Part shown: positions 3,807 through 59,217 of the stretch, one piece after another | How positions within the stretch are numbered: position 1 is the first letter of the stretch | Layout: each line of letters opens with the position of its first letter | NCBI GenBank assembly: GCA_945877765.1 | Contig: CAMDWQ010000008.1 | Location: 13,774 to 77,773 of the forward strand | Reading direction: 5' to 3' | Source: Candidatus Omnitrophota bacterium | GTDB lineage: Bacteria > Omnitrophota > Gorgyraeia > 2-02-FULL-51-18 | Length of the DNA stretch: 64,000 bases | Program-made: the position numbers and the translations under genes | Notes under the pieces: generated by a model | Databases searched by the model: none | What the model was told of the DNA's origin: nothing | What the model saw: the letters and a program-made list of their open reading frames with translations, nothing else

Positions 3807-4085
3807 ATGCCCACCTACGAATATAAATGCCTCAAATGCAAAAAGCATTTCGATAAACTCCAAAGCATGAGCGAAAAACCACTTAAGAGCTGCATTTACT
3901 GCAAAGGCAAAGTCGAGCGCCTCATCGGCGGCGGAGCAGGACTTATCTTTAAGGGTAGTGGATTTTACATCACGGATTATAAGAATAAATCCACCTCAGG
4001 ATCAGCTTCGGACTCGAGCAAACCTAAAGAAACTAAAACGGATAGCGCGCCCGTTAAGAAAGTGGAGAAGACGGATAAGAAATAG
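3807..4085 (+). CDS. FmdB-family zinc-ribbon putative regulatory protein with a Ser/Lys-rich tail
   Basis: MPTYEYKCLKCKKHFDKLQSMSEKPLKSCIYCKGKVERLIG...KGSGFYITDY matches the FmdB/CxxC_CxxC_SSSS family consensus (YEYxCxxCG…CPxCG…GxGFY). It begins 3 nt after the dnaJ stop. Confidence 0.75.
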   Translation: MPTYEYKCLKCKKHFDKLQSMSEKPLKSCIYCKGKVERLIGGGAGLIFKGSGFYITDYKNKSTSGSASDSSKPKETKTDSAPVKKVEKTDKK

Positions 4086-4261
4086 TGTTGCGCCAGGGCC
4101 TGGCCGGGAAATCTTTTCGGGCCGGCGTTAAATTTGCCCCACCGTGGCAAATTAAACTCGGAGATGAGAGCTCGCTCGTCCCGTCTATTACGACGGGACA
4201 CCATGGCCGCTCGCCTCATCTACGCGTCCCAAAAAGATTTCCCGGCCACCCGGCGGGGTGC
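4086..4261 (+). repeat. Copy A of a ~176-bp palindromic, multi-hairpin (MITE-like) repeat
   Basis: 16-bp terminal inverted repeats GGCCGGGAAATCTTTT (4103-4118) and AAAAGATTTCCCGGCC (4232-4247). Outer arms gtgttgcgccRgggcctg and cacccggcgSggtgc. Internal hairpins ttaaatttgcc/ggcaaattaaa and gtcccgtc/gacgggac lie inside a gatgag/ctcatc stem. It is about 90% identical to the reverse complement of 5186-5363 and to 59044-59217. Confidence 0.65.
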
Positions 4262-5185: not shown

Positions 5186-5363
5186 GCACCGCGCCGGGTG
5201 GCCGGGGAATCTTTTTGGGACGCGTAGATGAGGCGAGCGGCCACGGTGTCCCGTCGTAATAGACGGGACGAGCGAGCCCTCATCTATCGAGTTTATTTTG
5301 CCTGGGCGGGGCAAAATAAACGCCGGCCCGAAAAGATTCCCCGGCCAGGCCCCGGCGCAACAC
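5186..5363 (-). repeat. Copy B (inverted orientation) of the ~176-bp palindromic repeat
   Basis: Reverse complement of 4086-4261 at about 90% identity. TIRs are GGCCGGGGAATCTTTTT (5200-5216) and AAAAGATTCCCCGGCC (5331-5346). The internal hairpin is ttattttgcc/ggcaaaataa, a compensatory variant of copy A. Confidence 0.65.
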
Positions 5364-5846: not shown

Positions 5847-6119
5847 ATGATCCCGACCAATAGAAAACCCAGTCATCCCGGCGAAATACTCCTGACGGAG
5901 TTTTTGGAGCCACTCAAAATGAGCCAGTCCGAATTGGCCAAAAAAATGGGTGTGCCTATTCAGCGTGTGAATACGCTTATCAATAAAAAAAGAGGGGTGA
6001 CGGCCGAGACCGCCATTCTTCTGTCTGAAGTATTAAAAAATACCGCAGAATTTTGGATGAACCTGCAGGCTATCTACGATCTCTACGAAGCGCGCCAGAC
6101 TCTTAAGAGCGCAGCCTAA
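5847..6119 (+). CDS. higA: HigA antitoxin (XRE-family HTH)
   Basis: SHPGEILLTEFLEPLKMSQSELAKKMGVPIQRVNTLINKKRGVTAETAILLSEVL…FWMNLQAIYDL is the typical HigA HTH_XRE sequence. It lies 9 nt downstream of higB and follows an AGGAG Shine-Dalgarno sequence. Confidence 0.8.
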   Translation: MIPTNRKPSHPGEILLTEFLEPLKMSQSELAKKMGVPIQRVNTLINKKRGVTAETAILLSEVLKNTAEFWMNLQAIYDLYEARQTLKSAA

Positions 6120-6130
6120 TAAGTGACAGC

Positions 6131-6286
6131 CTAGATACGCTCAATCGTATATTTAGGGCTATTATCGGCTTGTGGAATCGCCACTTTGTTGGCACTGCGC
6201 TGGAAAGCGGAGAACCACTTGTGTAAGGATCTCACCCGTCTTTTGCGCGCCAGATTGTCTAGATCAGCTTTGGTTACCGTTGTCAT
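6131..6286 (-). CDS. Possible small ORF (51 aa, MTTVTKADLDNLARKRRVRSLHKWFSAFQRSANKVAIPQADNSPKYTIERI); speculative
   Basis: Minus-strand ATG at 6286 is preceded by AGGAG at 7-nt spacing. It lies in an otherwise unexplained 330-bp gap between higA and the DUF1015 gene. No homology was recognised. Confidence 0.2.
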   Translation of the reverse strand: MTTVTKADLDNLARKRRVRSLHKWFSAFQRSANKVAIPQADNSPKYTIERI

Positions 6287-6447
6287 TGTTTCGCTCCTAG
6301 GCCTAGTTATTTTTGATTAAAATTGCTTATAGACCAAGCATACATGAGGCTTCGAGCCAATGCAACTGTTGATAATATTTCCACCTGGTTATTTCCAGTG
6401 CTATAATAGCCACTCATTTTTTAAACGGAAGATAAGGAAGCAAATCG

Positions 6448-7722
6448 ATGCCTGAAATTAAAGCGTTTCGCGGATGGCGTTACAACCCTGCCAAGAATCA
6501 AGATCTCTCTAAAGTTTTTGCGCCACCCTATGATGTCATCTCTCCTCGTCAGCAGAAAAAATTGTACGATGAAAATCCTCACAACGTGATCCGTCTGGAG
6601 TTGGGTACGGAAGAAGCGGGTGACTCGGTGATGAACAACAAATACACTCGCGCGGCCGATTACCTTAAAGAGTGGAAGACTCAGTCCATTTTAGTCCGTG
6701 AAGACGAGCCTGCACTTTACGTGTATATTCAGGATTATCAGGAAGAGGGCAAACAAAAGACACGTCTTGGATTTTTGTCTCTGATGAAAATTGACGAAAA
6801 AGCCGTATTGAAGCACGAGAATACACTTGCTGCCCCCAAAGAAGACCGCTTAAAGCTTTTGCGGGCCACACGTACCAATCTTAGCCCGATCTTTGGACTC
6901 TTTGAAGACAATAAAAAAGTCGTAAACTCTTTTCTTAAAAAAACAATGAGTCTTAAGCCGTTTGCCGATGTGACAATTGATGGCGTGCGTCACCGGCTTT
7001 TTATCGAGACGCGTGGAAATGTGTTGGCGGGGATTGAGAAAGCCATGAAGGGCAAGACCATGTACATCGCCGATGGGCATCACCGTTTTGAAACTGCTTG
7101 CAACTTTAAAAAAGAAGCAGGCACCAAAGGTCTTGCGGGTCCCGGCTACGTGATGACGTATTTTGCTGACTGTTACAACAACCCCTTTAAAATTTTTCCC
7201 ACACACCGCCTCATTAAAATTAAAGACGTGAAGAACTGGGAAAAGCTGGCAAAAATCGGAACGCATGAAAAAGTAAAAGATTTAAACACGCTGCTTAAGC
7301 ATTTAGAGGACTATCGTGAGGATGTACCGGGCAAGCCCTACGAATTTGGTTTTTATGCCAAAGGCCATGGTTTTCATCTTTTTAAAATGAACAAAGCCAC
7401 CGCCAAAAAAGTCAAAAACAATCCCGTCGACCGTCTGGATGTGGCGGTGCTCCACCAGTTCATCATTGACCCTTGTTTTGGAATTAAAAAAATCGAGAAA
7501 TCCGAACAAATTGATTTTACGCGCTCCCCCGAAGATGCGGTTGCCCGCGTGGATCACGGGTTGTTTGACGCAGCTTTATTTTTGAGGCCGACATCCCTTA
7601 AGGAAATGATACTTGCCTCGAAAAAAGGCTTAAAGATGCCGCAGAAATCGACCTATTTTTATCCCAAACTTCTATCGGGCCTGGTGTTTCACAGCTTTGA
7701 GGATGGGATTCAAAACCAATGA
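6448..7722 (+). CDS. DUF1015-family protein
   Basis: The N-terminus MPEIKAFRGWRYNP…VFAPPYDVISPRQQKKLYDENPHNVIRLEL matches the characteristic DUF1015 signature (I.PF.G.RY……APPYDVI). Confidence 0.75.
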   Translation: MPEIKAFRGWRYNPAKNQDLSKVFAPPYDVISPRQQKKLYDENPHNVIRLELGTEEAGDSVMNNKYTRAADYLKEWKTQSILVREDEPALYVYIQDYQEEGKQKTRLGFLSLMKIDEKAVLKHENTLAAPKEDRLKLLRATRTNLSPIFGLFEDNKKVVNSFLKKTMSLKPFADVTIDGVRHRLFIETRGNVLAGIEKAMKGKTMYIADGHHRFETACNFKKEAGTKGLAGPGYVMTYFADCYNNPFKIFPTHRLIKIKDVKNWEKLAKIGTHEKVKDLNTLLKHLEDYREDVPGKPYEFGFYAKGHGFHLFKMNKATAKKVKNNPVDRLDVAVLHQFIIDPCFGIKKIEKSEQIDFTRSPEDAVARVDHGLFDAALFLRPTSLKEMILASKKGLKMPQKSTYFYPKLLSGLVFHSFEDGIQNQ

Positions 7723-38985: not shown

Positions 38986-40437
38986 ATGAATTTTGCCGAA
39001 AAAACTATCAACGCATTAGCTGACCTTTATCAAAAAAATTCCTGCACGCAAAAAGAGGTGCTTGAGTCTCTGGCGACAGCGGTGAAATCTAAAGATCGTG
39101 ATTCCCGTCAAATTCACGCCTATATCGCGCCCGAGACGGCCCAACCGCGTCACCGCAAAGCAGATAAATCGTCAAAGCTATGGGGGATTCCTATCGCGGT
39201 GAAGGACAATATTTGTGTGGAGCGCGAGGAAATTACCTGCGCTTCCAAAATTTTGAAAGGTTTTATCTCGCCGTACAACGCGACGGTGATTGATAAACTT
39301 TTAGATGCCGGTGCTGTCATTTATGGTCGTACCAATATGGATGAGTTTGCGTTCGGGTCCAGCTGCGAAACATCCACCTATGGACCAACCAGAAACCCGC
39401 GTGACCCTGAGTGCGTGCCTGGAGGCTCTAGTGGAGGTTCCGCGGCGAGCGTGGCAGATCACACGGCCGTTGCCTCTTTAGGATCGGACACGGGCGGCTC
39501 GATTCGTCAGCCCGCCGCTTTCTGCGGAGTGGTCGGCATGAAACCCACTTATGGGCGCGTGTCGCGCTATGGGTTGATTGCTTTTGCCTCAAGCTTGGAC
39601 CAGATTGGCCCGATTACCAAAGATGTGAGGGATTCGGCATCCCTATTAAGTGTCATTGCCGGTTATGATCCCAAAGATTCAACTTCTGCCGATATTCCGG
39701 TGCCGGATTACACGGCGCTTTTAGGTAAAAGTATCAAAGGGTTCAAAATTGGCATCCCAAAAGAGTATGTTGAAGGGATAGACAACCCCGAGTTGCGCAA
39801 GAAGCTCGTCGAGGAGCCCAAGAAAATTTTTGAAAGCCTCGGGGCATCCGTTGAAACCGTGAGTTTGCCGCACACAAGATATGCGGTGAGCGTTTATTAT
39901 ATTGTTGCTCCCTCCGAGGCCAGCTCCAATCTTGAGCGTTTTGATGGGGTGCGTTTTGGCTATCGCGAGGCTGGCGCTTCCACGCTTCTGGATCTTTATG
40001 AAAAATCTCGCGGCACAGGCTTCGGCGCTGAAGCCAAACGGCGCATTATTTTGGGCACCTATAGTCTTTCTAGCGGCTATTATGACGCGTATTATTTAAA
40101 AGCGATGAAGGTCCGCACTAAAATCAAACAGGATTTTGACCAGGCGTTCAAAAAAGTGGATCTATTGCTGACACCCACAGCCCCTGGCGGCGCATTCAAA
40201 TTGGGCGAAAAATCTAAAAATCCACTGGAGATGTACCTCTCGGATATTTATACGATTTCTGCCAATCTTGCCGGTGTGCCGGCGCTTTCGATTCCCGGGG
40301 GCCTAATCGGCGAAAAAAAAATGCCGCTGGGACTTCAATTAGTGGGGAAGCCTTTTGACGAAGCGACCCTTTATCAAGCGGCCTATGCATTTGAGCAAGC
40401 GACCGATTTTCATCGGCAGTTGGGGAATGTAAAGTGA
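38986..40437 (+). CDS. gatA: Glutamyl-tRNA(Gln) amidotransferase subunit A
   Basis: Amidase signature [11 protein letters not shown]…[12 protein letters not shown]. Confidence 0.95.
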
Positions 40438-41882
40438 GCGCCCAGGTGATCGTCACAATAGGCCTTGAGACTCATGTGCAGCTAAAATCGCGCACAAAAA
40501 TATTTTGTTCCTGTGCTGCGGAATTTGGAAGCACCCCGAATAGTAATGTGTGTCCGGTATGTTTAGGACTCCCTGGGTCTTTGCCGGTACTAAATCGAAA
40601 AGTATTCTCTTTGGGCCTGCGCGCGGTTTTGGCTTTGGGGGGAACCCCGTCTGAAGTCATCAAATTTGACCGGAAAAATTATTTTTACCCCGATCTTCCC
40701 AAAGGTTATCAAATTTCTCAGTTTGATCATCCATTGGGTCGCGGAGGCTTTGTTGAAATTGATACACCAACTGGTGTCAAACAAGTGGTTTTGAATCGCC
40801 TTCATCTTGAAGAGGATGCCGGAAAGCTGATTCACGACAATTCTCCCACGGAAAGCCATGTCGATTTAAACCGCGCTGGTACGCCCTTGGCTGAGATTGT
40901 CACGGAACCTTGTCTGGACAGCTCCGAGGAAGCCTATGAATATCTGACAAACCTCAAAGCCATCTTAAAAACAGCCGGCGTGTCGGACTGCGATATGGAA
41001 AAGGGCCATTTGCGCTGCGACGCCAACGTATCTATCCGAAAAAATGCGGCGGATCCCTTAGGGAAACGCGTCGAAATTAAAAATTTGAATTCATTTAAAG
41101 CCGTCAAGGCAGCCATTGAGTATGAAGTAAAGCGTCAAGCCGAGGCGCTAGAAAAGGGCGAAGTAATGGTGCAAGAAACACGCCTTTGGGACGATACGCG
41201 CCAAAAGACTTTTACCATGCGGTCCAAAGAGGACGCTCATGACTATCGCTATTTCCCGGAGCCGGATTTAGTTCCATTTCATTTAGAAGTAAGTGAAATC
41301 GAAGAAGCAAGGAAATCGTTGCCGACCTTGCCAAGAGCAAGGAAAGAAAATTTAATGGCAAAATATAATCTTTCTGAATATGACGCTAGGCTTATTTGCG
41401 CCGATCAAGAAATCGAGAATTTTTTTGAAGATTGTGTGAAAATTTATAACGATGTCAAGACAATCGCTATTTGGATAAAAGGCTCAGTTTTTGCTTATCG
41501 TGCTGAAAATTCCGATGAATTTAAAAAATTTGGATTATCTAGACTCAAACCACAACTTCTCGTTCAGTTGATAGGACTTGTCGACGCGGGGACTTTAAGT
41601 TTGCAAGTTGCAAAGGAAAAAGTTTTCCCGGAGATCGTGAGAGGATTTTCACCAGCACAGGTTGTTAAAGAAAAAGGTCTGACACAAGTCTCCGACACCG
41701 GCGCTTTGGAGGGGTGGATCGTGGAAGTGATTGCGGCCAACCCCAAAGTGGTCGAGGATTTTAAATCCGGAAAAGAATCGGCGGTGATGTTTCTTGTCGG
41801 GCAGGTGATGAAAAAAAGTCAGGGAAAAGCCAATCCGGGCATGCTGGGTGAACTTATCAAAAAAAAATTAAAAGAAATTTGA
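40434..41882 (+). CDS. gatB: Asp/Glu-tRNA(Asn/Gln) amidotransferase subunit B
   Basis: IGLETHVQL…TKIFCSC… and a C-terminal GatB/YqeY domain. It overlaps the gatA stop by 4 nt. Confidence 0.95.
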
Positions 41883-41908
41883 AAATACTCCGCAACGTCA
41901 CCAACAAC

Positions 41909-41981
41909 GTCATTCCCGAATGTTTTAATCGGGAATCAAACCGATACATGATCCCCGATAAAAAATTTCGGGGATGACATT
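41909..41981 (+). promoter_or_regulatory. Copy 1 of a 73-nt double-hairpin motif
   Basis: gtcATTCCCGAatgttttaaTCGGGAATcaaaccgatacatgATCCCCGAtaaaaaattTCGGGGATgacatt. It lies 27 nt after the gatB stop and ends 3 nt before the deacetylase ATG. It has the same architecture as 56130-56202, but with the two stem sequences exchanged between hairpins. Confidence 0.5.
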
Positions 41982-41984
41982 CTT

Positions 41985-42869
41985 ATGAAATATTTCAAAA
42001 TCGGTTTTTCCGTATTCTTCATACTCCTCATCAGTTTTTTTGTCGTCAAGTCCTGCGTTCACCCCAAAAGAACAATCACCAACCAAGAGACTGCTTCCAC
42101 AGTCCCTTTTTTCTCAAAACTGATGCCGCCGCAAAAACACATCGTGATCGCGCCGCGGGTGATTTCTGGGGACAAGGAAAAGAATCTTGTGTCTTCGACG
42201 CAAGGGCCGCACGTGGCGATTATTCTGGATGACTGGGGGAAAAATTACTCGGTTTTAAAAAATGCCATTGAGATTCACCGGCCTCTGACGCTGGCGGTGC
42301 TTCCCAATCTTATTCATAGCCGCCGAATTGCCGAGGAGGCACATCAAAATGGGTTGGGTGTTATGCTGCACTTACCGATGGAGCCGTTCAACAAGAAAGC
42401 TCCCTTAGAGCCCCGAACAATCAAGACTTCAATGACCGACAGCCAAATCAAGCAGATCGTCGACAATGCTGTTGCGGCCATTCCGCACGTCCAAGGCGTT
42501 AATAACCACATGGGATCGGCTGTGACCAGTGACGCGCGGGTGATGAAGCTTATTTTGGAACGGCTTAAATCAAAAAATCTTTTTTTTGTCGATAGCCATG
42601 TCGTGGCAAAAACTCAAGGAAGTTGGGCTGCCCTCCAGACTGGCATTCGCTTTGCGGAGCGTGATGTTTTTATCGATAATGAAAATGAGCTGGGCGCGAT
42701 TAAGCGGCAGCTGGAAAAGGCAAAGCAAATGGCACTGGCTAGCGGCGAAGCGATTGTCATTGGTCATGACCGTAAACTGACTCTGGAGGCCATCAAAGAG
42801 ATGCTCCCTGAGTTTGACCGCGCCGGAGTGCGCCTGGTGCTGGCCCGGGATGTTGTTAAATCTTCTTAA
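41985..42869 (+). CDS. Divergent polysaccharide deacetylase family protein (YibQ/DUF610-like)
   Basis: N-terminal TM anchor. …HVAIILDDWGKNYSVLKNAIEIHRPLTLAVLPNLIHSRRIAEEAHQNGLGVMLHLPMEP matches the divergent polysaccharide deacetylase family (PF04748). Confidence 0.8.
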   Translation: MKYFKIGFSVFFILLISFFVVKSCVHPKRTITNQETASTVPFFSKLMPPQKHIVIAPRVISGDKEKNLVSSTQGPHVAIILDDWGKNYSVLKNAIEIHRPLTLAVLPNLIHSRRIAEEAHQNGLGVMLHLPMEPFNKKAPLEPRTIKTSMTDSQIKQIVDNAVAAIPHVQGVNNHMGSAVTSDARVMKLILERLKSKNLFFVDSHVVAKTQGSWAALQTGIRFAERDVFIDNENELGAIKRQLEKAKQMALASGEAIVIGHDRKLTLEAIKEMLPEFDRAGVRLVLARDVVKSS

Positions 42870-50697: not shown

Positions 50698-51759
50698 GTG
50701 CGTTTTTTAAAAAAAATCGAGGAGAAAGTCGCCCGCTTCAAAGAAGTGGAGCGGCTTCTCCAAGATCCATCCGTCACCTCTGAGCCCTCTCGGGTCAAGG
50801 ACCTCGGCAAAGAATTTCGCGGTCTTGAAAAAATCAACAATCTCTATAATGAGTATTTAAAAGTGCACGCCGAGATTGAAGAAGTGCGCCATCTTTTAAA
50901 TGATAAAACTCAAAGCGCTGATCTTATTTCAATGGCGTCGCTTGAAGCCGAGTCCCTGGCAGTGCGTGAAAAAAAAGCCATTGGAGACATCGAGGCCCTC
51001 TTGATGCAGGAAGACCCTCTTTTAATTAAAAACGTGATCATGGAAATCCGCGCGGGAACCGGGGGGCTTGAGGCGGGGCTTTTTGCCGGCGATTTGTTGC
51101 GCATGTACTCGCGATTTTCTGCCAAATGTGGTTTTAAAATCGAAGTTCTTTCTCTTTCCCCCAACGATGCGGGTGGTCTCAAGGAAGTGATAGCGTCCGT
51201 CACGGGTGCCGGCGCTTACGGTAAATTTAAATATGAAAGTGGCACTCACCGCGTCCAACGCGTCCCGGCAACCGAGGCTTCCGGCCGTATCCACACCTCT
51301 GCTGTCACCGTGGCTATTTTACCGGAAGCCGAAGAAGTGGATGTGGAAATTAAACCCGAAGACCTTCGCATTGACGTCTTTCGTTCTGGCGGACCTGGCG
51401 GTCAGAGTGTGAATACAACCGATTCGGCGGTCCGTATTACGCACATCCCTTCCGGACTTGTGGTGAGCTGTCAGGATGAAAAATCCCAATTAAAAAACAA
51501 GCAAAAGGGGATGAAGATTCTTCGCGCTCGTCTTTTTGAAAAAATTACCAATGAGCGCAATGCCGAAATCGCTAAGAATCGCAAAGAGCAAGTTGGTTCC
51601 GGCGACCGTAGTGAAAAAATCCGCACTTACAATTTTCCCGACCGCCGCGTCACCGATCACCGCGTAGGTTTTACCTCGCACAACCTAGAAGCCGTGCTAG
51701 AGGGCGATCTTGAGGGTTTTGTGAATGCGCTTTTTGAGGACGAGCTTGCCAGGAGTTGA
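50698..51759 (+). CDS. prfA: Peptide chain release factor 1
   Basis: GGQ motif (GGPGGQSVNTTDSAVRITHIPSG) and the PxT-type tripeptide (PAT) of RF1. GTG start. Confidence 0.9.
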   Translation: MRFLKKIEEKVARFKEVERLLQDPSVTSEPSRVKDLGKEFRGLEKINNLYNEYLKVHAEIEEVRHLLNDKTQSADLISMASLEAESLAVREKKAIGDIEALLMQEDPLLIKNVIMEIRAGTGGLEAGLFAGDLLRMYSRFSAKCGFKIEVLSLSPNDAGGLKEVIASVTGAGAYGKFKYESGTHRVQRVPATEASGRIHTSAVTVAILPEAEEVDVEIKPEDLRIDVFRSGGPGGQSVNTTDSAVRITHIPSGLVVSCQDEKSQLKNKQKGMKILRARLFEKITNERNAEIAKNRKEQVGSGDRSEKIRTYNFPDRRVTDHRVGFTSHNLEAVLEGDLEGFVNALFEDELARS

Positions 51760-52711
51760 TAGCTTGTTGCAAGCGGCTCGTGATAACGCAGCCTACCTGC
51801 TTAAAATCAAAAGAAGCTTATCCCTTAAAAAAATCATGTCCCCGGCTGTTGAGGCCCAAATCCTCATTTTCCATTTTTCAAAAATAAACCGTATCGATTT
51901 TTTGACCGGCACCAAAATACCTTCGCTGCCACAGAAAAAGAAGATTGAGCAGGCTCTGCAAAAAAGGCTAACGGGGATTCCTGCCGCTTATTTGACAGAA
52001 ACTGCCGGGTTCTACGGACATGATTTTTTAGTGAACCCCTCTGTCTTAATCCCCCGGCCTGAAACCGAGCTTTTGGTGGAGCAAACACTAAAAATTTTAA
52101 ATCAGGTGCCACAGGGGTCAGACCCCTCTGGCACCAAAGCTGCCAAATCCTTGTTTTCTCCTAGGGGTCAGAGGGGTCAGACCCCTCTGGCACCGGAGGT
52201 TCTTGAGATTGGGACGGGGTCGGGGTGTATTGCCGTCAGTTTGACAATCGCAAGGCCAGACTGTAGAATGACGGCTCTTGATATTTCGAGCGAAGCGCTT
52301 AAAACCGCCCGTAGAAACGCCCGTCAGCATGGGGTGGCTGGGCGGATTTCTTTTGTTAAGAGCGATTTATTTTCAGTTTTTGGGCCTCGGCATCGCGGTC
52401 GTTGGGATATTTTAGTATCCAATCCACCCTATGTTCCCCGAAGTGATTTTCGAAATTTGCAGCGCGAAGTGAAGAAAGAGCCGCGCCTGGCGTTGGATGG
52501 CGGTAAAAGCGGTTTAGTGGTGATTGAGAAAATTCTCAAGGAAGCGCCGTATTATCTAAAAAATGGCGGCTATATTCTTCTAGAAATCGGGAAGGGCCAG
52601 TCGCGGGCATTAGGTAAGATGGCGACCCAGATGAAGTTCTTTCAAAGTTTAAAGTTTGTCAAAGATTACGCGGGAATTGACCGCTTTTTAGTCGCGAGGA
52701 AAATTGGATAA
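51725..52711 (+). CDS. prmC: Release factor glutamine methyltransferase PrmC (HemK) carrying a repeat-derived in-frame insertion
   Basis: The NPPY motif (LVSNPPYVP) and SAM motif I (VLEIGTGSGCI). The N-terminal region is about 50 aa longer than usual because of the 52114-52194 segment. It overlaps the prfA end by 35 nt. Confidence 0.8.
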   Translation: MRFLRTSLPGVDSLLQAARDNAAYLLKIKRSLSLKKIMSPAVEAQILIFHFSKINRIDFLTGTKIPSLPQKKKIEQALQKRLTGIPAAYLTETAGFYGHDFLVNPSVLIPRPETELLVEQTLKILNQVPQGSDPSGTKAAKSLFSPRGQRGQTPLAPEVLEIGTGSGCIAVSLTIARPDCRMTALDISSEALKTARRNARQHGVAGRISFVKSDLFSVFGPRHRGRWDILVSNPPYVPRSDFRNLQREVKKEPRLALDGGKSGLVVIEKILKEAPYYLKNGGYILLEIGKGQSRALGKMATQMKFFQSLKFVKDYAGIDRFLVARKIG

Positions 52712-53972: not shown

Positions 53973-54030
53973 TAAATTCGAAGCGCGAAATTCGAAATCC
54001 GAAACAAATTCGAATTTTCGAAAATTCAAT

Positions 54031-54130
54031 AACCAAAACAACTGTTTCGAATTTTGATATTCGAATTTCGAATTTGTTTAACCATAACAACTGTTTCGAA
54101 TTTCGATATTCGAATTTCGAATTTTGTTTT
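54031..54130 (+). repeat. Tandem ~50-bp direct repeat (2 units) rich in palindromic TTCGAA motifs
   Basis: Unit 1 (54031-54079) is aaccaaaacaactgtttcgaattttgatattcgaatttcgaatttgttt. Unit 2 (54080-54130) is aaccataacaactgtttcgaatttcgatattcgaatttcgaattttgtttt. The flanking 53977-54030 is also ATTCGAA-rich and includes the perfect 12-mer palindrome aaattcgaattt. Confidence 0.5.
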
Positions 54131-55536: not shown

Positions 55537-56149
55537 TCTTGATTATTTAAATCAGGGATTTAAATCCCTGGCGGGCGTGGATGAAGCGGGGCGCGGGCCA
55601 TTGGCCGGTCCTGTAGTTGCTTCAGCCGTGATCGTCAGGGATTTTTCATTTTTTTCAACGGTCAATGACTCGAAGAAAATGACGGCGAAAGCGCGCGAAC
55701 GCGCCTATGAAGAAATTTTGACAAAATGTGTGGTGGGAATCGGAATTATTGATTGCCATACGATTGATAGAATTGATATTTATCAAGCCACGCTTCGAGC
55801 GATGGAAGAGGCGGTGATGAAGCTTGGCGAGGTGCCGGACGTCATCTTGGTGGACGGGCCCAAAACGCCAAATTTGCCGTTTAGGCAGGTGCCGATTGTG
55901 GATGGGGACGCCATCTCATTTTCGATTGCCTGCGCGTCCGTGGTGGCGAAAGTCACGCGTGACCGCATGATGGAACATTACGCCGAAGAATTTCCGCAGT
56001 ACGGTTTTGAGAAGCACAAAGGTTATGGGACCAAGAGCCATATGGAAGCAATCAAGAAAAATGGTCCCTGCAAAATTCACCGCAGGAGTTTTGAGCCGAT
56101 AAAGTCTTTAATAAAACAGGGGGCCAACTGTCATCCCCGAAATCTTTAA
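55469..56149 (+). CDS. rnhB: Ribonuclease HII
   Basis: [21 protein letters not shown]…DSKKM…VDGPKTP are RNase HII catalytic motifs. TTG 55469 was chosen, about 32 aa upstream of GVDEAGRG. The track's 55349 start would overlap rplS by 188 nt. The last 7 codons overlap hairpin 1 of the double-hairpin motif. Confidence 0.8.
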
Positions 56150-56202
56150 TCGGGGATCAAACTTAGGAATGATTCCCGATAAAAAAATTCGGGAATGACA
56201 TT
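56130..56202 (+). promoter_or_regulatory. Copy 2 of the 73-nt double-hairpin motif
   Basis: gtcATCCCCGAaatctttaaTCGGGGATcaaacttaggaatgATTCCCGAtaaaaaaatTCGGGAATgacatt. It spans the rnhB stop (56147-49) and ends 9 nt before the guaA ATG. Relative to copy 1, the ATCCCCGA and ATTCCCGA stems are exchanged between hairpin 1 and hairpin 2. Confidence 0.5.
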
Positions 56203-56211
56203 AAATTTCAA

Positions 56212-57750
56212 ATGGAAACACTTTTAATCATTGATTTCGGTTCGCAATACAATCAGTTGATTGCGCGCCGCGTGCGCGAATCAAAAGTGTTTTGCGAAAT
56301 TGTGCCGCCCACGATCACGGCTGATGAAATTCGCGCCAAGAATGTCAAAGGCGTCATCCTCTCCGGTGGTCCGGCCAGCGTCTATGAAAAAAACGCGCCC
56401 AAACTAAATCCCGATTTTCTTAAACTTGGCGTGCCGGTGTTAGGCATCTGTTACGGCATGCAGGCGCTGTCCCATTTGTTGGGAGGTGAAGTGCGCCGCG
56501 CCAAGCGCCGTGAGTACGGGCATGCGGAACTTTTTTTACATGTGAAACGCGGGGAGCTTTTTCACGGTGTTCCCAAGCGCTGGGTGTCGTGGATGTCTCA
56601 CGGAGATTATGTCTCGCGCCTTCCGCAAGGGTTTTTTAAGACCGCGTACACTTCAAGCACAGTCGTGGCGGCGTTTGAAAACACCCAGCGCAAAATCTAC
56701 GGCGTGCAGTTTCATCCTGAAGTGCTTCATAGTGAATACGGCGCGCATGTGATTCGTAATTTTTTATTCCCGGTTTGCGGTTTTCACCGTTCGTGGACGA
56801 TGAAAAATTTTATCAAGGAGACCGTTTCTAAGACACGCCATAAGGTCGGCAACCAACGAGTGATTCTGGGCCTTTCTGGGGGCGTGGATTCATCGGTGGC
56901 AGCCGCTCTTTTATCAAAAGCTGTGGGCAAACAGCTTATCTGTATTTTTGTGAACAACGGACTCTTGCGCAAAGGCGAGGAAAACGAAGTTCGCCGCGCG
57001 TTCATGGGCAAATTCAATCTGAATTTAAGGATCGTCAACGCTGAGAAAATATTCCTTCAAAAGTTAAAAGGCGTCACGGATCCCGAGAGAAAAAGAAAGA
57101 TCATCGGCCACGAATTTATTTATGTGTTCCAGCGCGAAGCCAAAAAGATCAAAGGTGCCAAATTTTTAGGACAGGGGACTCTCTATCCGGATGTCATCGA
57201 AAGCCGCTCAGCATTTGGCGGCCCGACGGCAGTCATTAAGTCGCATCACAACGTAGGCGGCCTGCCGGAAAAAATGGATATGAAGTTGGTGGAGCCCTTG
57301 CGTGAACTTTTTAAAGATGAAGCTCGGGCGCTCGGCTATACGCTCGGCCTGCCCAAATCGTTGATCGGTCGTCATCCTTTTCCCGGCCCGGGCCTGGCGG
57401 TCAGAATTCTGGGAGAGATTACCCGTGAGCGTCTTGAGATTTTAAGAGAAGCTGACGTCCGCTTCATTGAAGAGATCCGCAGTGCCGGCTTGTATGACAA
57501 AATCTGGCAAGCCTTTGCAGTCCTGTTACCGGTGAAGTCTGTCGGAGTGATGGGTGACGAAAGAACTTACGACAACACGATCGCGCTGCGTGCCGTGACC
57601 TCTGTTGACGGCATGACTGCCGACTGGTTTCATTTTCCCAAAGAAGTCTTGGCTAAAATTTCCAATCGCATTATCAACGAAGTGAAGGGCGTCAACCGCG
57701 TTGTGTATGACGTAAGCTCCAAGCCTCCTGCGACAATAGAATGGGAGTAG
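56212..57750 (+). CDS. guaA: GMP synthase (glutamine-hydrolysing)
   Basis: Class-I GATase N-terminus (…GICYGMQAL, catalytic Cys), a PP-loop ATP pyrophosphatase (LGLSGGVDSSV), and the GMP synthase C-terminal dimerisation domain. Confidence 0.95.
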   Translation: METLLIIDFGSQYNQLIARRVRESKVFCEIVPPTITADEIRAKNVKGVILSGGPASVYEKNAPKLNPDFLKLGVPVLGICYGMQALSHLLGGEVRRAKRREYGHAELFLHVKRGELFHGVPKRWVSWMSHGDYVSRLPQGFFKTAYTSSTVVAAFENTQRKIYGVQFHPEVLHSEYGAHVIRNFLFPVCGFHRSWTMKNFIKETVSKTRHKVGNQRVILGLSGGVDSSVAAALLSKAVGKQLICIFVNNGLLRKGEENEVRRAFMGKFNLNLRIVNAEKIFLQKLKGVTDPERKRKIIGHEFIYVFQREAKKIKGAKFLGQGTLYPDVIESRSAFGGPTAVIKSHHNVGGLPEKMDMKLVEPLRELFKDEARALGYTLGLPKSLIGRHPFPGPGLAVRILGEITRERLEILREADVRFIEEIRSAGLYDKIWQAFAVLLPVKSVGVMGDERTYDNTIALRAVTSVDGMTADWFHFPKEVLAKISNRIINEVKGVNRVVYDVSSKPPATIEWE

Positions 57751-57811: not shown

Positions 57812-58057
57812 ATGGAACATTTAAGTATTACGTTTCCCGTGGATCTGCGCAAAGAGGTAGACCGTTGCGCTAAGCTTGAGCACACCAAAAGGAGCACCCT
57901 GATCCAGAAAGCGGTGAAGGTGTATCTGGGTCTTAAATACAGGGCTCAACTTGAGCAAGATCTGAAAGCGGGATATCTTGAGATGGCGGGCGAGTCTCAA
58001 AACTTGATGGACGAATTCAAAAATATCGATGCAGAGTCTTGGAAGTATGCCGGTTAA
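57812..58057 (+). CDS. Ribbon-helix-helix (CopG-like) antitoxin
   Basis: 81 aa. The N-terminal beta-strand and helix pattern (HLSITFPVDLRKEVDRCAKLEHTKRSTLIQKAVKVYL) is typical of RHH antitoxins. It overlaps the downstream PemK/MazF toxin gene. Confidence 0.7.
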   Translation: MEHLSITFPVDLRKEVDRCAKLEHTKRSTLIQKAVKVYLGLKYRAQLEQDLKAGYLEMAGESQNLMDEFKNIDAESWKYAG

Positions 58058-58391
58058 AAGAGGGGACATTTTTTGGGTCAACTTGGATCCGGTCAAGGGT
58101 TCTGAGCAGGCCGGGAAGCGCCCCGTGATCGTCATTCAAAACAACGTGGGCAACGCATTGGCTTCCACAACCATCATCGCGCCTCTCACCACCAAGATAT
58201 TTTCTAAAGAGTACCCGACCAACGTGATGGTCCTCAAGGGAACCGCGGGACTTAAGGAGAATTCGACGATTCTTTTCTCGCAGATTAGGGTGATCGATCA
58301 ATCCAGACTTGAGAAAAAAATAGGAGTTTTGCCGTCAACCTACACACACCGGGTCGATACAGCCATCAAAAACAGTTTAGGAGTCCATTAA
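58047..58391 (+). CDS. mazF: MazF/PemK-family endoribonuclease toxin
   Basis: MPVKRGDIFWVNLDPVKGSEQAGKRPVIVIQNNVGNALASTTIIAPLTTK…SQIRVIDQSRL matches the PemK/MazF consensus (RGDIxxVxLDPxxGxEQxGxRPxLVxS…ViVxPiTs). The track ORF begins at 58029; the ATG at 58047 is preferred. Confidence 0.8.
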   Translation: MPVKRGDIFWVNLDPVKGSEQAGKRPVIVIQNNVGNALASTTIIAPLTTKIFSKEYPTNVMVLKGTAGLKENSTILFSQIRVIDQSRLEKKIGVLPSTYTHRVDTAIKNSLGVH

Positions 58392-58393
58392 AC

Positions 58394-58945
58394 ATGAAGA
58401 TCGCCACTCGCATTGGTTTTGTTTCCCTATTTCTAATTTCGCCCCTTTTTCTTCAAGCCACAGCTTTTGCCGAGATGCTAGAGGGTCGCGTAGTACGGGC
58501 GAATTCTCAGTCGCTGGATTTGAGAGTGTATGACCCCCAGGGAAGACCTTACCCCAACACGCTTAATTTAAAAGTGGACGCCTACACGCGGGTGACCGGA
58601 GTTTCTTCTGTTTCCAATCTGCGTACTAACGACGCTGTTAGTGCCCAAGTGTATCAGGATGAATCCCGCACTTGGCACGTAGACAGAGTCACACTATTTC
58701 AGGAAATGAATGCGCGACCCGCGACTCAAAATCCCCCACCGTCTTTACGGGATGTCCTTGGAAACCCTATGGTTCGCGGCGCTCTCCTAGGCGCGGCTAC
58801 TGGTGCCATTGCCTCATCCACGTCAGGAGGAAAAGCAGGGAAGGGCGCTCTCGTCGGCGCTGGTGTTGGGGCCGCCGCAGGTCTCCTCGGTCAAATGTTC
58901 AGCCAAAACTCTAAATCTTCGCAGAACTCGGACGACCAACGGTAA
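58394..58945 (+). CDS. Secreted protein with a C-terminal glycine-zipper (Gly-zipper 2TM-like) segment
   Basis: Signal peptide MKIATRIGFVSLFLISPLFLQATAFA. The C-terminus is GALLGAATGAIASSTSGGKAGKGALVGAGVGAAAGLLGQMF (GxxxG repeats). The start is 3 nt after the toxin stop. Confidence 0.55.
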   Translation: MKIATRIGFVSLFLISPLFLQATAFAEMLEGRVVRANSQSLDLRVYDPQGRPYPNTLNLKVDAYTRVTGVSSVSNLRTNDAVSAQVYQDESRTWHVDRVTLFQEMNARPATQNPPPSLRDVLGNPMVRGALLGAATGAIASSTSGGKAGKGALVGAGVGAAAGLLGQMFSQNSKSSQNSDDQR

Positions 58946-59017: not shown

Positions 59018-59043
59018 TGTTCTCGGTTGGGTGTAACGTTGAA

Positions 59044-59217
59044 GTGTTGCGCCGGGGCCTGATCGGTAAATCTTTTCGGGCCAGCGCTCTTTTGCCCCTC
59101 CGAGGCAAAATTCGCTCTAAAGACAAGCTCGCTCGTCCCGCTATAAAGAACGGGACTCCATGGCCGCTCGCTTGTCTAAGCGTCCCAAAAAGATTTCCCG
59201 CTCACCCGGCGCGGTGC
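59044..59217 (+). repeat. Copy C of the ~176-bp palindromic (MITE-like) repeat
   Basis: gtgttgcgccggggcctg…atcttttcggg…cttttgcc-cctccg-aggcaaaa…gtcccgc-tataaagaa-cgggac…gcgtcccaaaaagatttcccgctcacccggcgcggtgc. It is in the same orientation as copy A. Its internal hairpins carry compensatory changes. Confidence 0.65.

Follow-up and report, generated by a model that had tools for sequence, protein, structure and literature searches.

Head-to-head doublets of CGTC/TGTC-tagged repeat units at two compact gene junctions of a Candidatus Omnitrophota bacterium

Palindromic repeats with a CGTC tag are a described group of repetitive extragenic palindromic (REP) sequences. They were classified into the families CGTC-1 to -4 by Di Nocera, De Gregorio and Rocco in 2013, and they include dRS3 of Neisseria and RPE-4 and RPE-6 of Rickettsia (PMC3733652). 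In these repeats the tag is often TGTC, with CCTC allowed; the stem comprises 8-9 bp, its two leading positions being complementary A and T; the loop comprises 4-5 nt, with length variants in a few species; and the unpaired 3' tail is CCA. They occur mostly as head-to-head (HH) dimers with the tags outside, heterodimers are known, and they are without association with a transposase gene (PMC3733652). Here we analyzed a 64,000-nt stretch of contig CAMDWQ010000008.1 from a Candidatus Omnitrophota bacterium (hereafter, the window), in which a 73-nt motif occurs twice, once between gatB and a polysaccharide deacetylase gene and once at the junction of rnhB and guaA. The motif, a small DNA repeat of a selfish type, is a heterodimer, 70 nt long, in which two CGTC/TGTC-tagged REP hairpins are arranged head to head and their tags point outward. 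These doublets are very probably elements of the CGTC-REP/Ssn-motif kind that were inserted, one in each direction, into two compact gene junctions of this Omnitrophota genome.

Two other systems are relevant to the comparison. According to Chenal et al. (2025, PMC11893778), the NTS of Neisseria is CGTCATTCCCGCGMAVGCGGGAATCYRG and contains dRS3, and the more general Ssn-related motifs (SRM) flank genes for small proteins consisting of a single GIY-YIG domain (cd10448). The encoded Ssn proteins bind and cut the SRM as single-stranded DNA only. Binding by SsnA depends critically on the C just past the palindrome, and cutting depends critically on the bases 5' of it. The second system is the REPIN, which two papers (PMC3116915 and PMC3337134) present as a REP doublet folding as a long hairpin.

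Anatomy and orientation of the doublets

An earlier interpretation made from the letters of the window (the sequence-only reading) had located the two copies at positions 41909-41981 and 56130-56202. Re-reading of both stretches confirmed these coordinates and the sequences of the arms. In that interpretation each copy consisted of two independent hairpins, but a pattern search revealed that the hairpins are mutually inverted copies of one unit of approximately 30 nt, GTCAT-YCCCGA-N9-TCGGGRAT-CA, which is present once per strand in each motif. Of the 12 occurrences of the octamer ATYCCCGA in the window, eight are located inside the two 73-nt motifs. A 33-nt pattern of the unit, with up to three mismatches allowed, matched the window at 41909 (+), 41978 (-), 56130 (+), and 56199 (-) and nowhere else (0.00 matches in 100 shuffles).

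All of the four units (U1 to U4, Table 1) possess a perfectly paired 8-bp stem, ATYCCCGA/TCGGGRAT, a 9-nt loop, a GTCAT flank on the 5' side of the palindrome, and a C directly on its 3' side. The tag is aaCGTCAT in U1 and TGTCAT in U2, U3, and U4. The 3' tails are CAA or CAT, in which the first C of the consensus CCA is kept and the second base differs. In each motif, the GTCAT tags occupy the outer ends, and 10 nt separate the two inverted units. Each doublet pairs one C-type unit with one T-type unit, on opposite strands: the stem of one unit is ATCCCCGA/TCGGGGAT and that of the other is ATTCCCGA/TCGGGAAT.

The sequence-only reading had proposed that the A and G variants of the two stems traded places between the copies, with each local hairpin still perfectly paired, and that the local hairpin is, on this evidence, the selected unit. 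A repeat finder, however, detected both an inverted match (84% over 74 nt) and a direct match (82% over 73 nt) between the two 73-mers. Since the two matches are nearly equal, the two window sequences alone cannot prove a stem swap. We aligned eight doublets oriented from the C-type to the T-type unit, four from the window lineage and four from the metagenome-assembled genome (MAG) CAZBIH01. The alignment was free of gaps, with a spacer consensus of nGTCTAGGTTT and with type-specific loops, AATCTTTAA in the C unit and ATGTTTTTA in the T unit. Copy 1 agreed with the CAZBIH01 doublets at 61-65 of the 70 positions when read on the minus strand and at 50-55 when read on the plus strand. For copy 2, the corresponding values were 58-63 on the plus strand and 53-58 on the minus strand. 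The advantage of the plus strand for copy 2 is marginal outside the four variant stem positions, and therefore the orientation of this copy rests mainly on which unit type leads. The window lineage was also extended 9 kb upstream (locus L176). The resulting 73 kb contained four doublets and one singleton, and the doublets were heterotypic in all four cases, with two in each orientation. As judged from these alignments, both window copies are one asymmetric heterotypic doublet placed in opposite orientations, rather than a pair of sequences whose variants were exchanged by compensatory change.

Although the argument from the swap is invalid, selection acting on the local hairpin, as proposed, found support from a different direction. 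In 89 independent genome matches (from the scan described below), the free Y/R position of the stem was C-G in 47, T-A in 37, T-G in 4, and C-A in 1. We regard these counts as genuine covariation, at the level of the family, for the local hairpin.

Folding was predicted for both strands of each copy, in DNA form and in RNA form. The best fold was always a single long hairpin formed by pairing of unit 1 with unit 2, with z-scores of -4.3 to -5.9. The long hairpin was calculated at -18 to -20 kcal/mol (DNA) and -32 to -38 kcal/mol (RNA), and the two local hairpins at -14.5 kcal/mol (DNA) and -23.5 kcal/mol (RNA), so that the local form is less stable by 4-5 kcal/mol (DNA) or 9-15 kcal/mol (RNA). 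Both conformations are predicted to be available to the copies.

The preference for one long hairpin is the behavior described for REPINs, and an inverted pair of palindromes that is intergenic and present in many copies is likewise in agreement with a classical REPIN, in which the doublet would be mobilized by a REP-associated tyrosine transposase (RAYT; a Y1 HUH enzyme related to IS200/IS605) with the long hairpin as the substrate. We nevertheless consider this explanation highly improbable. In the long form, the difference between the C and T units leads to one mismatch or wobble in each arm, whereas pairing is kept in the local stems. The units carry the tag CGTC/TGTC-AT instead of one of the GTAG type, and this tag belongs to the REPs reported to be without transposase association (PMC3733652). 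In addition, the gene flanked by these hairpins in other genomes encodes a GIY-YIG protein, not a Y1 transposase, and no recurrent neighbor family was observed among 83 loci, where whole genomes were not specifically searched for Y1_Tnp.

Insertion at two compact gene junctions

The junction of rnhB and guaA measures 62 nt in the window, whereas it measures -23, +7, and +12 nt in the relatives represented by loci L089, L092, and L093, all of which are free of the element. The junction of gatB and the deacetylase gene is 15 nt long and empty in the relative CAZCDB01 (L174). Because the junctions are compact and empty in close relatives, both window copies are insertions, and the comparison identifies them as lineage-specific insertions into otherwise compact junctions. 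The start codons of the deacetylase gene (41985) and guaA (56212) lie 3 and 9 nt past the 73-nt copies, respectively, as had been noted before, and the copies are so close to these codons because the junctions that received them are very tight, with widths of only -23 to +15 nt in the relatives. The overlap of copy 2 with the end of rnhB is also confirmed; it extends over the last six codons and the stop codon: an alignment of RnhB sequences showed that the last residues, CHPRNL, and the stop are encoded by the element.

In MAG CAZBIH01, which displays 75% GatB identity to the window lineage and an identical gatCAB-deacetylase-tsaD synteny, the junction of gatB and the deacetylase gene (L175 3950-4026) is occupied by a different GTCAT...ATGAC doublet class. 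The stems of this doublet are broken by tandem GA/GA, GTCATCTC-GA-GC-GAA-GC-GA-GAGATC. The presence of different doublets in one gatB junction indicates that independent insertions took place at one site. We note that this MAG (GCA_964492015.1; loci L009, L015, L027, L032, L036, L037, L052, and L175) is labeled 'uncultured Planctomycetia'. Considering the GatB identity, the synteny, and the doublet family in common with the window lineage, the label looks doubtful. The window represents an Omnitrophota MAG lineage: its proteins recur in GCA_947444795.1 and in several assemblies of ENA, and the best named homologs of RnhB and GatB are from Omnitrophica.

An RNA leader was one of the three candidate functions in the sequence-only reading, the others being a REP-like element and a paired operator. 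More generally, a cis-acting RNA element (leader, attenuator, stabilizing hairpin, or terminator) might act within the polycistronic transcripts and control the deacetylase gene and guaA. Both copies are located between co-directional genes and would be transcribed, their fold as RNA, at -33 to -35 kcal/mol, is a strong one (z = -4.3 to -5.9), they end 3-9 nt before start codons, and REPs in general have been reported to affect mRNA stability (PMC3733652). The two copies are, however, oppositely oriented relative to the transcription of the flanking genes, which are on the plus strand, and the relatives manage with element-free junctions of 7-15 nt or with overlapping genes. Among the loci found in other genomes, the distance to the start codon varies from approximately 0 to more than 1000 nt, and the neighboring genes are unrelated. 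No T-run terminator signal was present; promoter and terminator scans detected no terminator-like site over either copy, the sole overlap being a weak -35-like ATGACA. A search of Rfam yielded no match at the gathering score, the only matches being sub-threshold ones to generic hairpins or miRNAs (15-29 bits versus cut-offs of 59-249). In the light of these counterpoints, control by an RNA element is very unlikely, and any RNA effect would therefore be a side-effect of the insertion and not the reason for the sequence.

One of the sub-threshold Rfam matches, at 41892-41992 of the window, was to WsnRNA46 (Wolbachia sRNA 46) and reached 19 bits, the gathering score being 65. As REP dimers of the CGTC-4 family abound in Wolbachia (PMC3733652), the WsnRNA46 family may overlap such a repeat.

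Table 1. Units, doublets, and adjoining genes at the two window junctions and in the upstream extension (window positions unless L176 is given)
Feature	Position	Strand	Description
gatB, upstream of copy 1	40434..41882	+	
Doublet copy 1, 70 nt	41909..41978	- in C-to-T sense	between gatB stop 41882 and deacetylase start 41985
U1, T type	41909..41938	+	(C)GTCAT-TCCCGA-ATGTTTTAA-TCGGGA-AT-CA; CGTC tag, 8-bp stem, 9-nt loop, C after palindrome
Copy 1 spacer, 10 nt	41939..41948		aaccgataca
U2, C type	41949..41978	-	(T)GTCAT-CCCCGA-AATTTTTTA-TCGGGG-AT-CA
Divergent polysaccharide deacetylase, downstream of copy 1	41985..42869	+	PF04748 in relatives' orthologues
rnhB (RNase HII)	55577..56149	+	conserved protein ends ...FEPIKSL; window tail (12 residues) runs into element
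Doublet copy 2, 70 nt	56130..56199	+ in C-to-T sense	at rnhB-guaA junction
U3, C type	56130..56159	+	(T)GTCAT-CCCCGA-AATCTTTAA-TCGGGG-AT-CA; encodes last 6 codons + stop of rnhB
Copy 2 spacer, 10 nt	56160..56169		aacttaggaa
U4, T type	56170..56199	-	(T)GTCAT-TCCCGA-ATTTTTTTA-TCGGGA-AT-CA
guaA (GMP synthase), downstream of copy 2	56212..57750	+	
Doublet, T to C	L176 2512-2581		overlaps 3' end of sua5-like gene
Solitary C-type unit	L176 3658-3685		
Doublet, C to T	L176 7170-7239		overlaps 3' end of miaA

Distribution in other genomes and association with GIY-YIG genes

A search of other genomes, which the sequence-only reading had recommended, was run on one genome per species with the pattern GTCATYCCCGA-N7-11-TCGGGRATCA. 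By a rough estimate, about one match to this pattern is expected by chance in the whole collection. The scan found at least 83 loci, in Omnitrophota, 'Planctomycetia', Nitrospirota, Ignavibacteria, Elusimicrobia, Proteobacteria, the candidate phyla radiation (CPR), and others. The viral contigs of IMG/VR gave no match to the unit pattern and hence no sign of a phage vector. The centers of the units were within open reading frames (ORFs) of at least 120 amino acids in 31% of cases, whereas such ORFs cover 86% of all bases (p ~1e-49). The gene contexts were co-directional in 50 cases, convergent in 8, and divergent in 5. The adjacent start codon was located from approximately 0 to over 1000 nt away from the element (median, about 90), and thus the position just before start codons, as seen in the two window copies, is not a fixed one. 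A random scatter of copies over coding and intergenic DNA in any orientation had been named beforehand as a result that would refute the sequence-only reading in favor of a generic REP. The elements in essence show this picture, as they occur in either orientation, except that they are strongly intergenic.

A census of GTCAT-tagged hairpins in 84 loci counted 167 hairpins, versus 8 in shuffles. Of the 49 pairs of adjacent units, 42 were arranged (+,-) with the tags outside, four were (-,+) with the tags inside, and three were tandem. About one of the 41 convergent doublets was homotypic. The partner of ATCCCCGA was ATTCCCGC in 18 doublets and ATTCCCGA in 12. A C was present directly after the palindrome in 47 of 47 related units that had not been selected for that base, which is the most critical one for the binding by SsnA (PMC11893778). 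Based on the tag, the stem, the HH dimers, and the dispersal, the REP-like element was the right choice among the three earlier candidates, and the window units can be assigned by their architecture to the CGTC/TGTC-tagged REP superfamily, which is found across the bacteria and of which the SRM is the generalized form.

The presence of two 8-bp palindromic half-site pairs near two start codons could also be accounted for by a paired operator, at which a dimeric regulator would control both downstream genes. We give this explanation almost no credence. The elements occupy at least 83 loci in many phyla, beside unrelated genes; clustering of the ORFs of at least 80 amino acids from 83 loci, in which a RAYT, a regulator, and toxin-antitoxin genes were sought, revealed no specific shared neighbor. 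Moreover, elements are found at the 3' ends of genes (the sua5-like gene and miaA in L176) and between convergent genes, and they are absent from the orthologous junctions of the relatives.

The Omnitrophota locus L046 contains a gene for a 95-residue GIY-YIG protein (PF01541, E = 7.5e-16). Upstream of the gene is GTCATTCCCGCGAAGGCGGGAATCC, a near-consensus NTS positioned 4 nt before the ATG, and an inverted GTCATCCCCGCGAAGGCGGGGATCA / ATCCCCGC unit is located just past the stop codon. Approximately 1.2 kb downstream of this intact copy, at L046 5701-5871, is a decayed Ssn-like gene, in which a 22-codon N-terminal remnant is followed by a stop. The decayed copy still lies between two hairpins, an NTS-like unit of the T type and an inverted ATCCCCGA unit with a 9-nt loop. 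The GIY-YIG protein of L046 gave no match to solved structures, and its comparison with NCBIfam gave only a sub-threshold match to group I intron endonucleases.

A metagenome scan yielded 80 loci encoding homologs of this protein with 59-77% identity, whose assignment as GIY-YIG proteins is by the Pfam GIY-YIG match and not by cd10448 itself. Hairpins with outward tags were present within 150 nt of the ssn homolog on the upstream side in 57 of 75 loci, on the downstream side in 53 of 70, and on both sides in 40 of 65. The hairpin density beside the homolog was 5.98 per kb, 15-fold that in the remainder of these loci (0.40 per kb). Units of the window type, with a 9-nt loop and a CCCGA stem, flanked the gene in L097 (for example, GTCATTCCCGAATGTCTCTATCGGGAATC), L115, L118, L127, L147, L153, L155, and L158, and in L153 they did so on both sides. 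The units flanking the ssn homologs mostly end with CCA. These results show that the same type of hairpin is physically associated with Ssn-like genes in other genomes. A rule by which the T-type unit marks the 5' end of ssn and the C-type unit marks the 3' end was also tried. It fits L046, L115, L118, and L155, but it was rejected as a general rule, as most of the pairs are T/T and some are C/T. The window and all of the loci outside the ssn set were searched for ssn by tblastn and by a profile constructed from 81 homologs; among those loci, the gene was found in L046 only, and a YhbQ-like GIY-YIG gene was found in L039.

Proposed explanation, other repeats, and comparison with known systems

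We propose the following explanation for the doublets. The hairpins would extrude when the DNA is single-stranded, for example, at replication or DNA uptake, and the extruded hairpins would be recognized by a cognate Ssn encoded elsewhere in the genome. As the tags face outward, one cleavable unit would therefore be presented on each strand, whichever way the doublet inserts. The doublets may have arisen from a hairpin-ssn-hairpin unit as miniature derivatives devoid of the gene and may spread with the help of that unit. The new C-terminus of RnhB and an RNA hairpin of about 30 bp just 5' of the guaA and deacetylase starts would then be by-products of the insertion.

A more specific form of this idea is that the 70-nt doublets are non-autonomous mobile elements, analogous to MITEs (miniature transposable elements with inverted repeats), which were generated by internal deletion of the hairpin-ssn-hairpin unit and are mobilized in trans by the GIY-YIG nuclease. 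We put this forward tentatively, as a possibility that is more doubtful than not. It is suggested by the decayed ssn of L046, which has one T-type and one C-type end, by the lineage-specific insertions with their empty sites in relatives, by the independent occupation of the gatB junction by two doublet classes, and by the conservation of the spacer and polarity between two genomes at only 75% GatB identity.

Several observations weigh against the assignment or the mechanism. With respect to the CGTC REPs, the loop of the window units is 9 nt in length instead of the described 4-5 nt, and the tail is CA (CAA or CAT) in place of CY, the consensus of those REPs being CCA. With respect to the Ssn motifs, the published SRM pattern, HGTCWYN(0-2)YYVSBRHN(0-5)WNVSBRGN(0-2)RNCYNB (PMC11893778), gave no match on either strand of the window, and thus matched none of the four units, whereas an NTS control and the upstream units of L046 do match. 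The units are accordingly outside the family by that definition and inside it by architecture and gene association. The flanking pairs around ssn homologs were T/T in 33 of 50 cases and C/T in some, and therefore the fixed C/T polarity is a trait of a subfamily, not a rule of the family. No ssn or GIY-YIG gene was found in the 64-kb window plus the 9 kb upstream (73 kb), where the best profile E value was 9.8. Target-site duplications and a common insertion target were sought at both junctions and in the doublet alignment, and none was found. The idea of miniature derivatives rests on one decayed example, that in L046, and transposition by Ssn elements is a hypothesis in the literature, raised only as an analogy in PMC11893778.

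If the proposed mobilization is true, Omnitrophota would have an active transposition-like system in which the driving enzyme is of the GIY-YIG kind and not a DDE, HUH, or serine/tyrosine recombinase. The polarity, the spacer, the empty sites, and the one decayed ssn provide circumstantial support for the hypothetical behavior of hairpin-ssn-hairpin units as insertion sequences with miniature derivatives. Even apart from the mechanism, the CGTC-REP/Ssn-motif superfamily is extended to Omnitrophota. The published SRM pattern misses the variant with the long loop and the CA tail, and censuses using this pattern are therefore undercounts. The elements also have an effect on annotation: the C-terminus of RnhB is rewritten, and a hairpin of approximately 30 bp is predicted to cover the regions in which translation of guaA and of the deacetylase gene is initiated. 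Since the motif is an ordinary repeat, it is a poor target for studies of a riboswitch, a leader, or an operator.

The window harbors other repeats in addition to the doublets. Inverted repeats of 156 nt (4085-4261 and 5186-5363), which are 80% complementary, bracket a segment of approximately 920 nt with a DUF4145 gene, and a third, partial copy is located 54 kb away, at 59043-59217. Each arm holds a 24-nt palindrome resembling TGGCCGGGAAATCTTTTCGGGCCG. These repeats may represent another family of mobile or miniature elements. Two palindromes resembling GGTGCCAGAGGGGTCTGACCCCTCTGGCACC are present at 52102-52197, within the coding region of a prmC-like ORF (51725-52711). This ORF encodes 328 residues in the window, versus 299-305 in the orthologs of the relatives, and the difference in length suggests an in-frame intragenic palindromic insertion. 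In the spacer between the EPSP synthase gene and rpsP, a 49-nt sequence repeated in tandem, with many TTCGAA/ATTTCGAAAT palindromes, was found at 53974-54124. The spacer is 176 nt long in the window and 23-25 nt long in the relatives L089 and L093, and it therefore contains another lineage-specific repeat insertion. Genes resembling those of toxin-antitoxin systems (PemK toxin, PIN domain, and HigB-like with a helix-turn-helix (HTH) partner) are located among the housekeeping operons around the elements, at 58017-58945 of the window and at 5986-7119 and 12694-13334 of L001.

Among the described systems, the REPIN-RAYT system (Bertels and Rainey 2011) resembles the doublets in that a long hairpin is formed by two REPs in inverted orientation, separated by a short spacer, and in that the unit is non-autonomous, intergenic, and found in either orientation. 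It differs in the tag and in the associated protein, which is a GIY-YIG nuclease for the window-type hairpins and not a Y1 HUH transposase. The NTS and SRM share with the window units the GTCAT flank, the palindrome, the C immediately after it, and the dispersal in many copies across phyla; both these hairpins and the window-type hairpins flank GIY-YIG genes with their tags outward. A compact, gene-less 70-nt doublet with a conserved spacer is, on the other hand, absent from the available part of the account in PMC11893778. The Omnitrophota host of the window doublets is outside the five phyla given for the CGTC REPs in PMC3733652, and the dimers of the window family keep a fixed polarity of C-type and T-type units, a further difference from those REPs. 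The window units nevertheless have in common with the CGTC REPs the CGTC/TGTC tag, the 8-bp stem beginning with AT, and the 3' tail beginning with C, together with the predominance of HH dimers, the presence in many copies, and the location between unidirectional or convergent ORFs, the ends of which some of the elements overlap.

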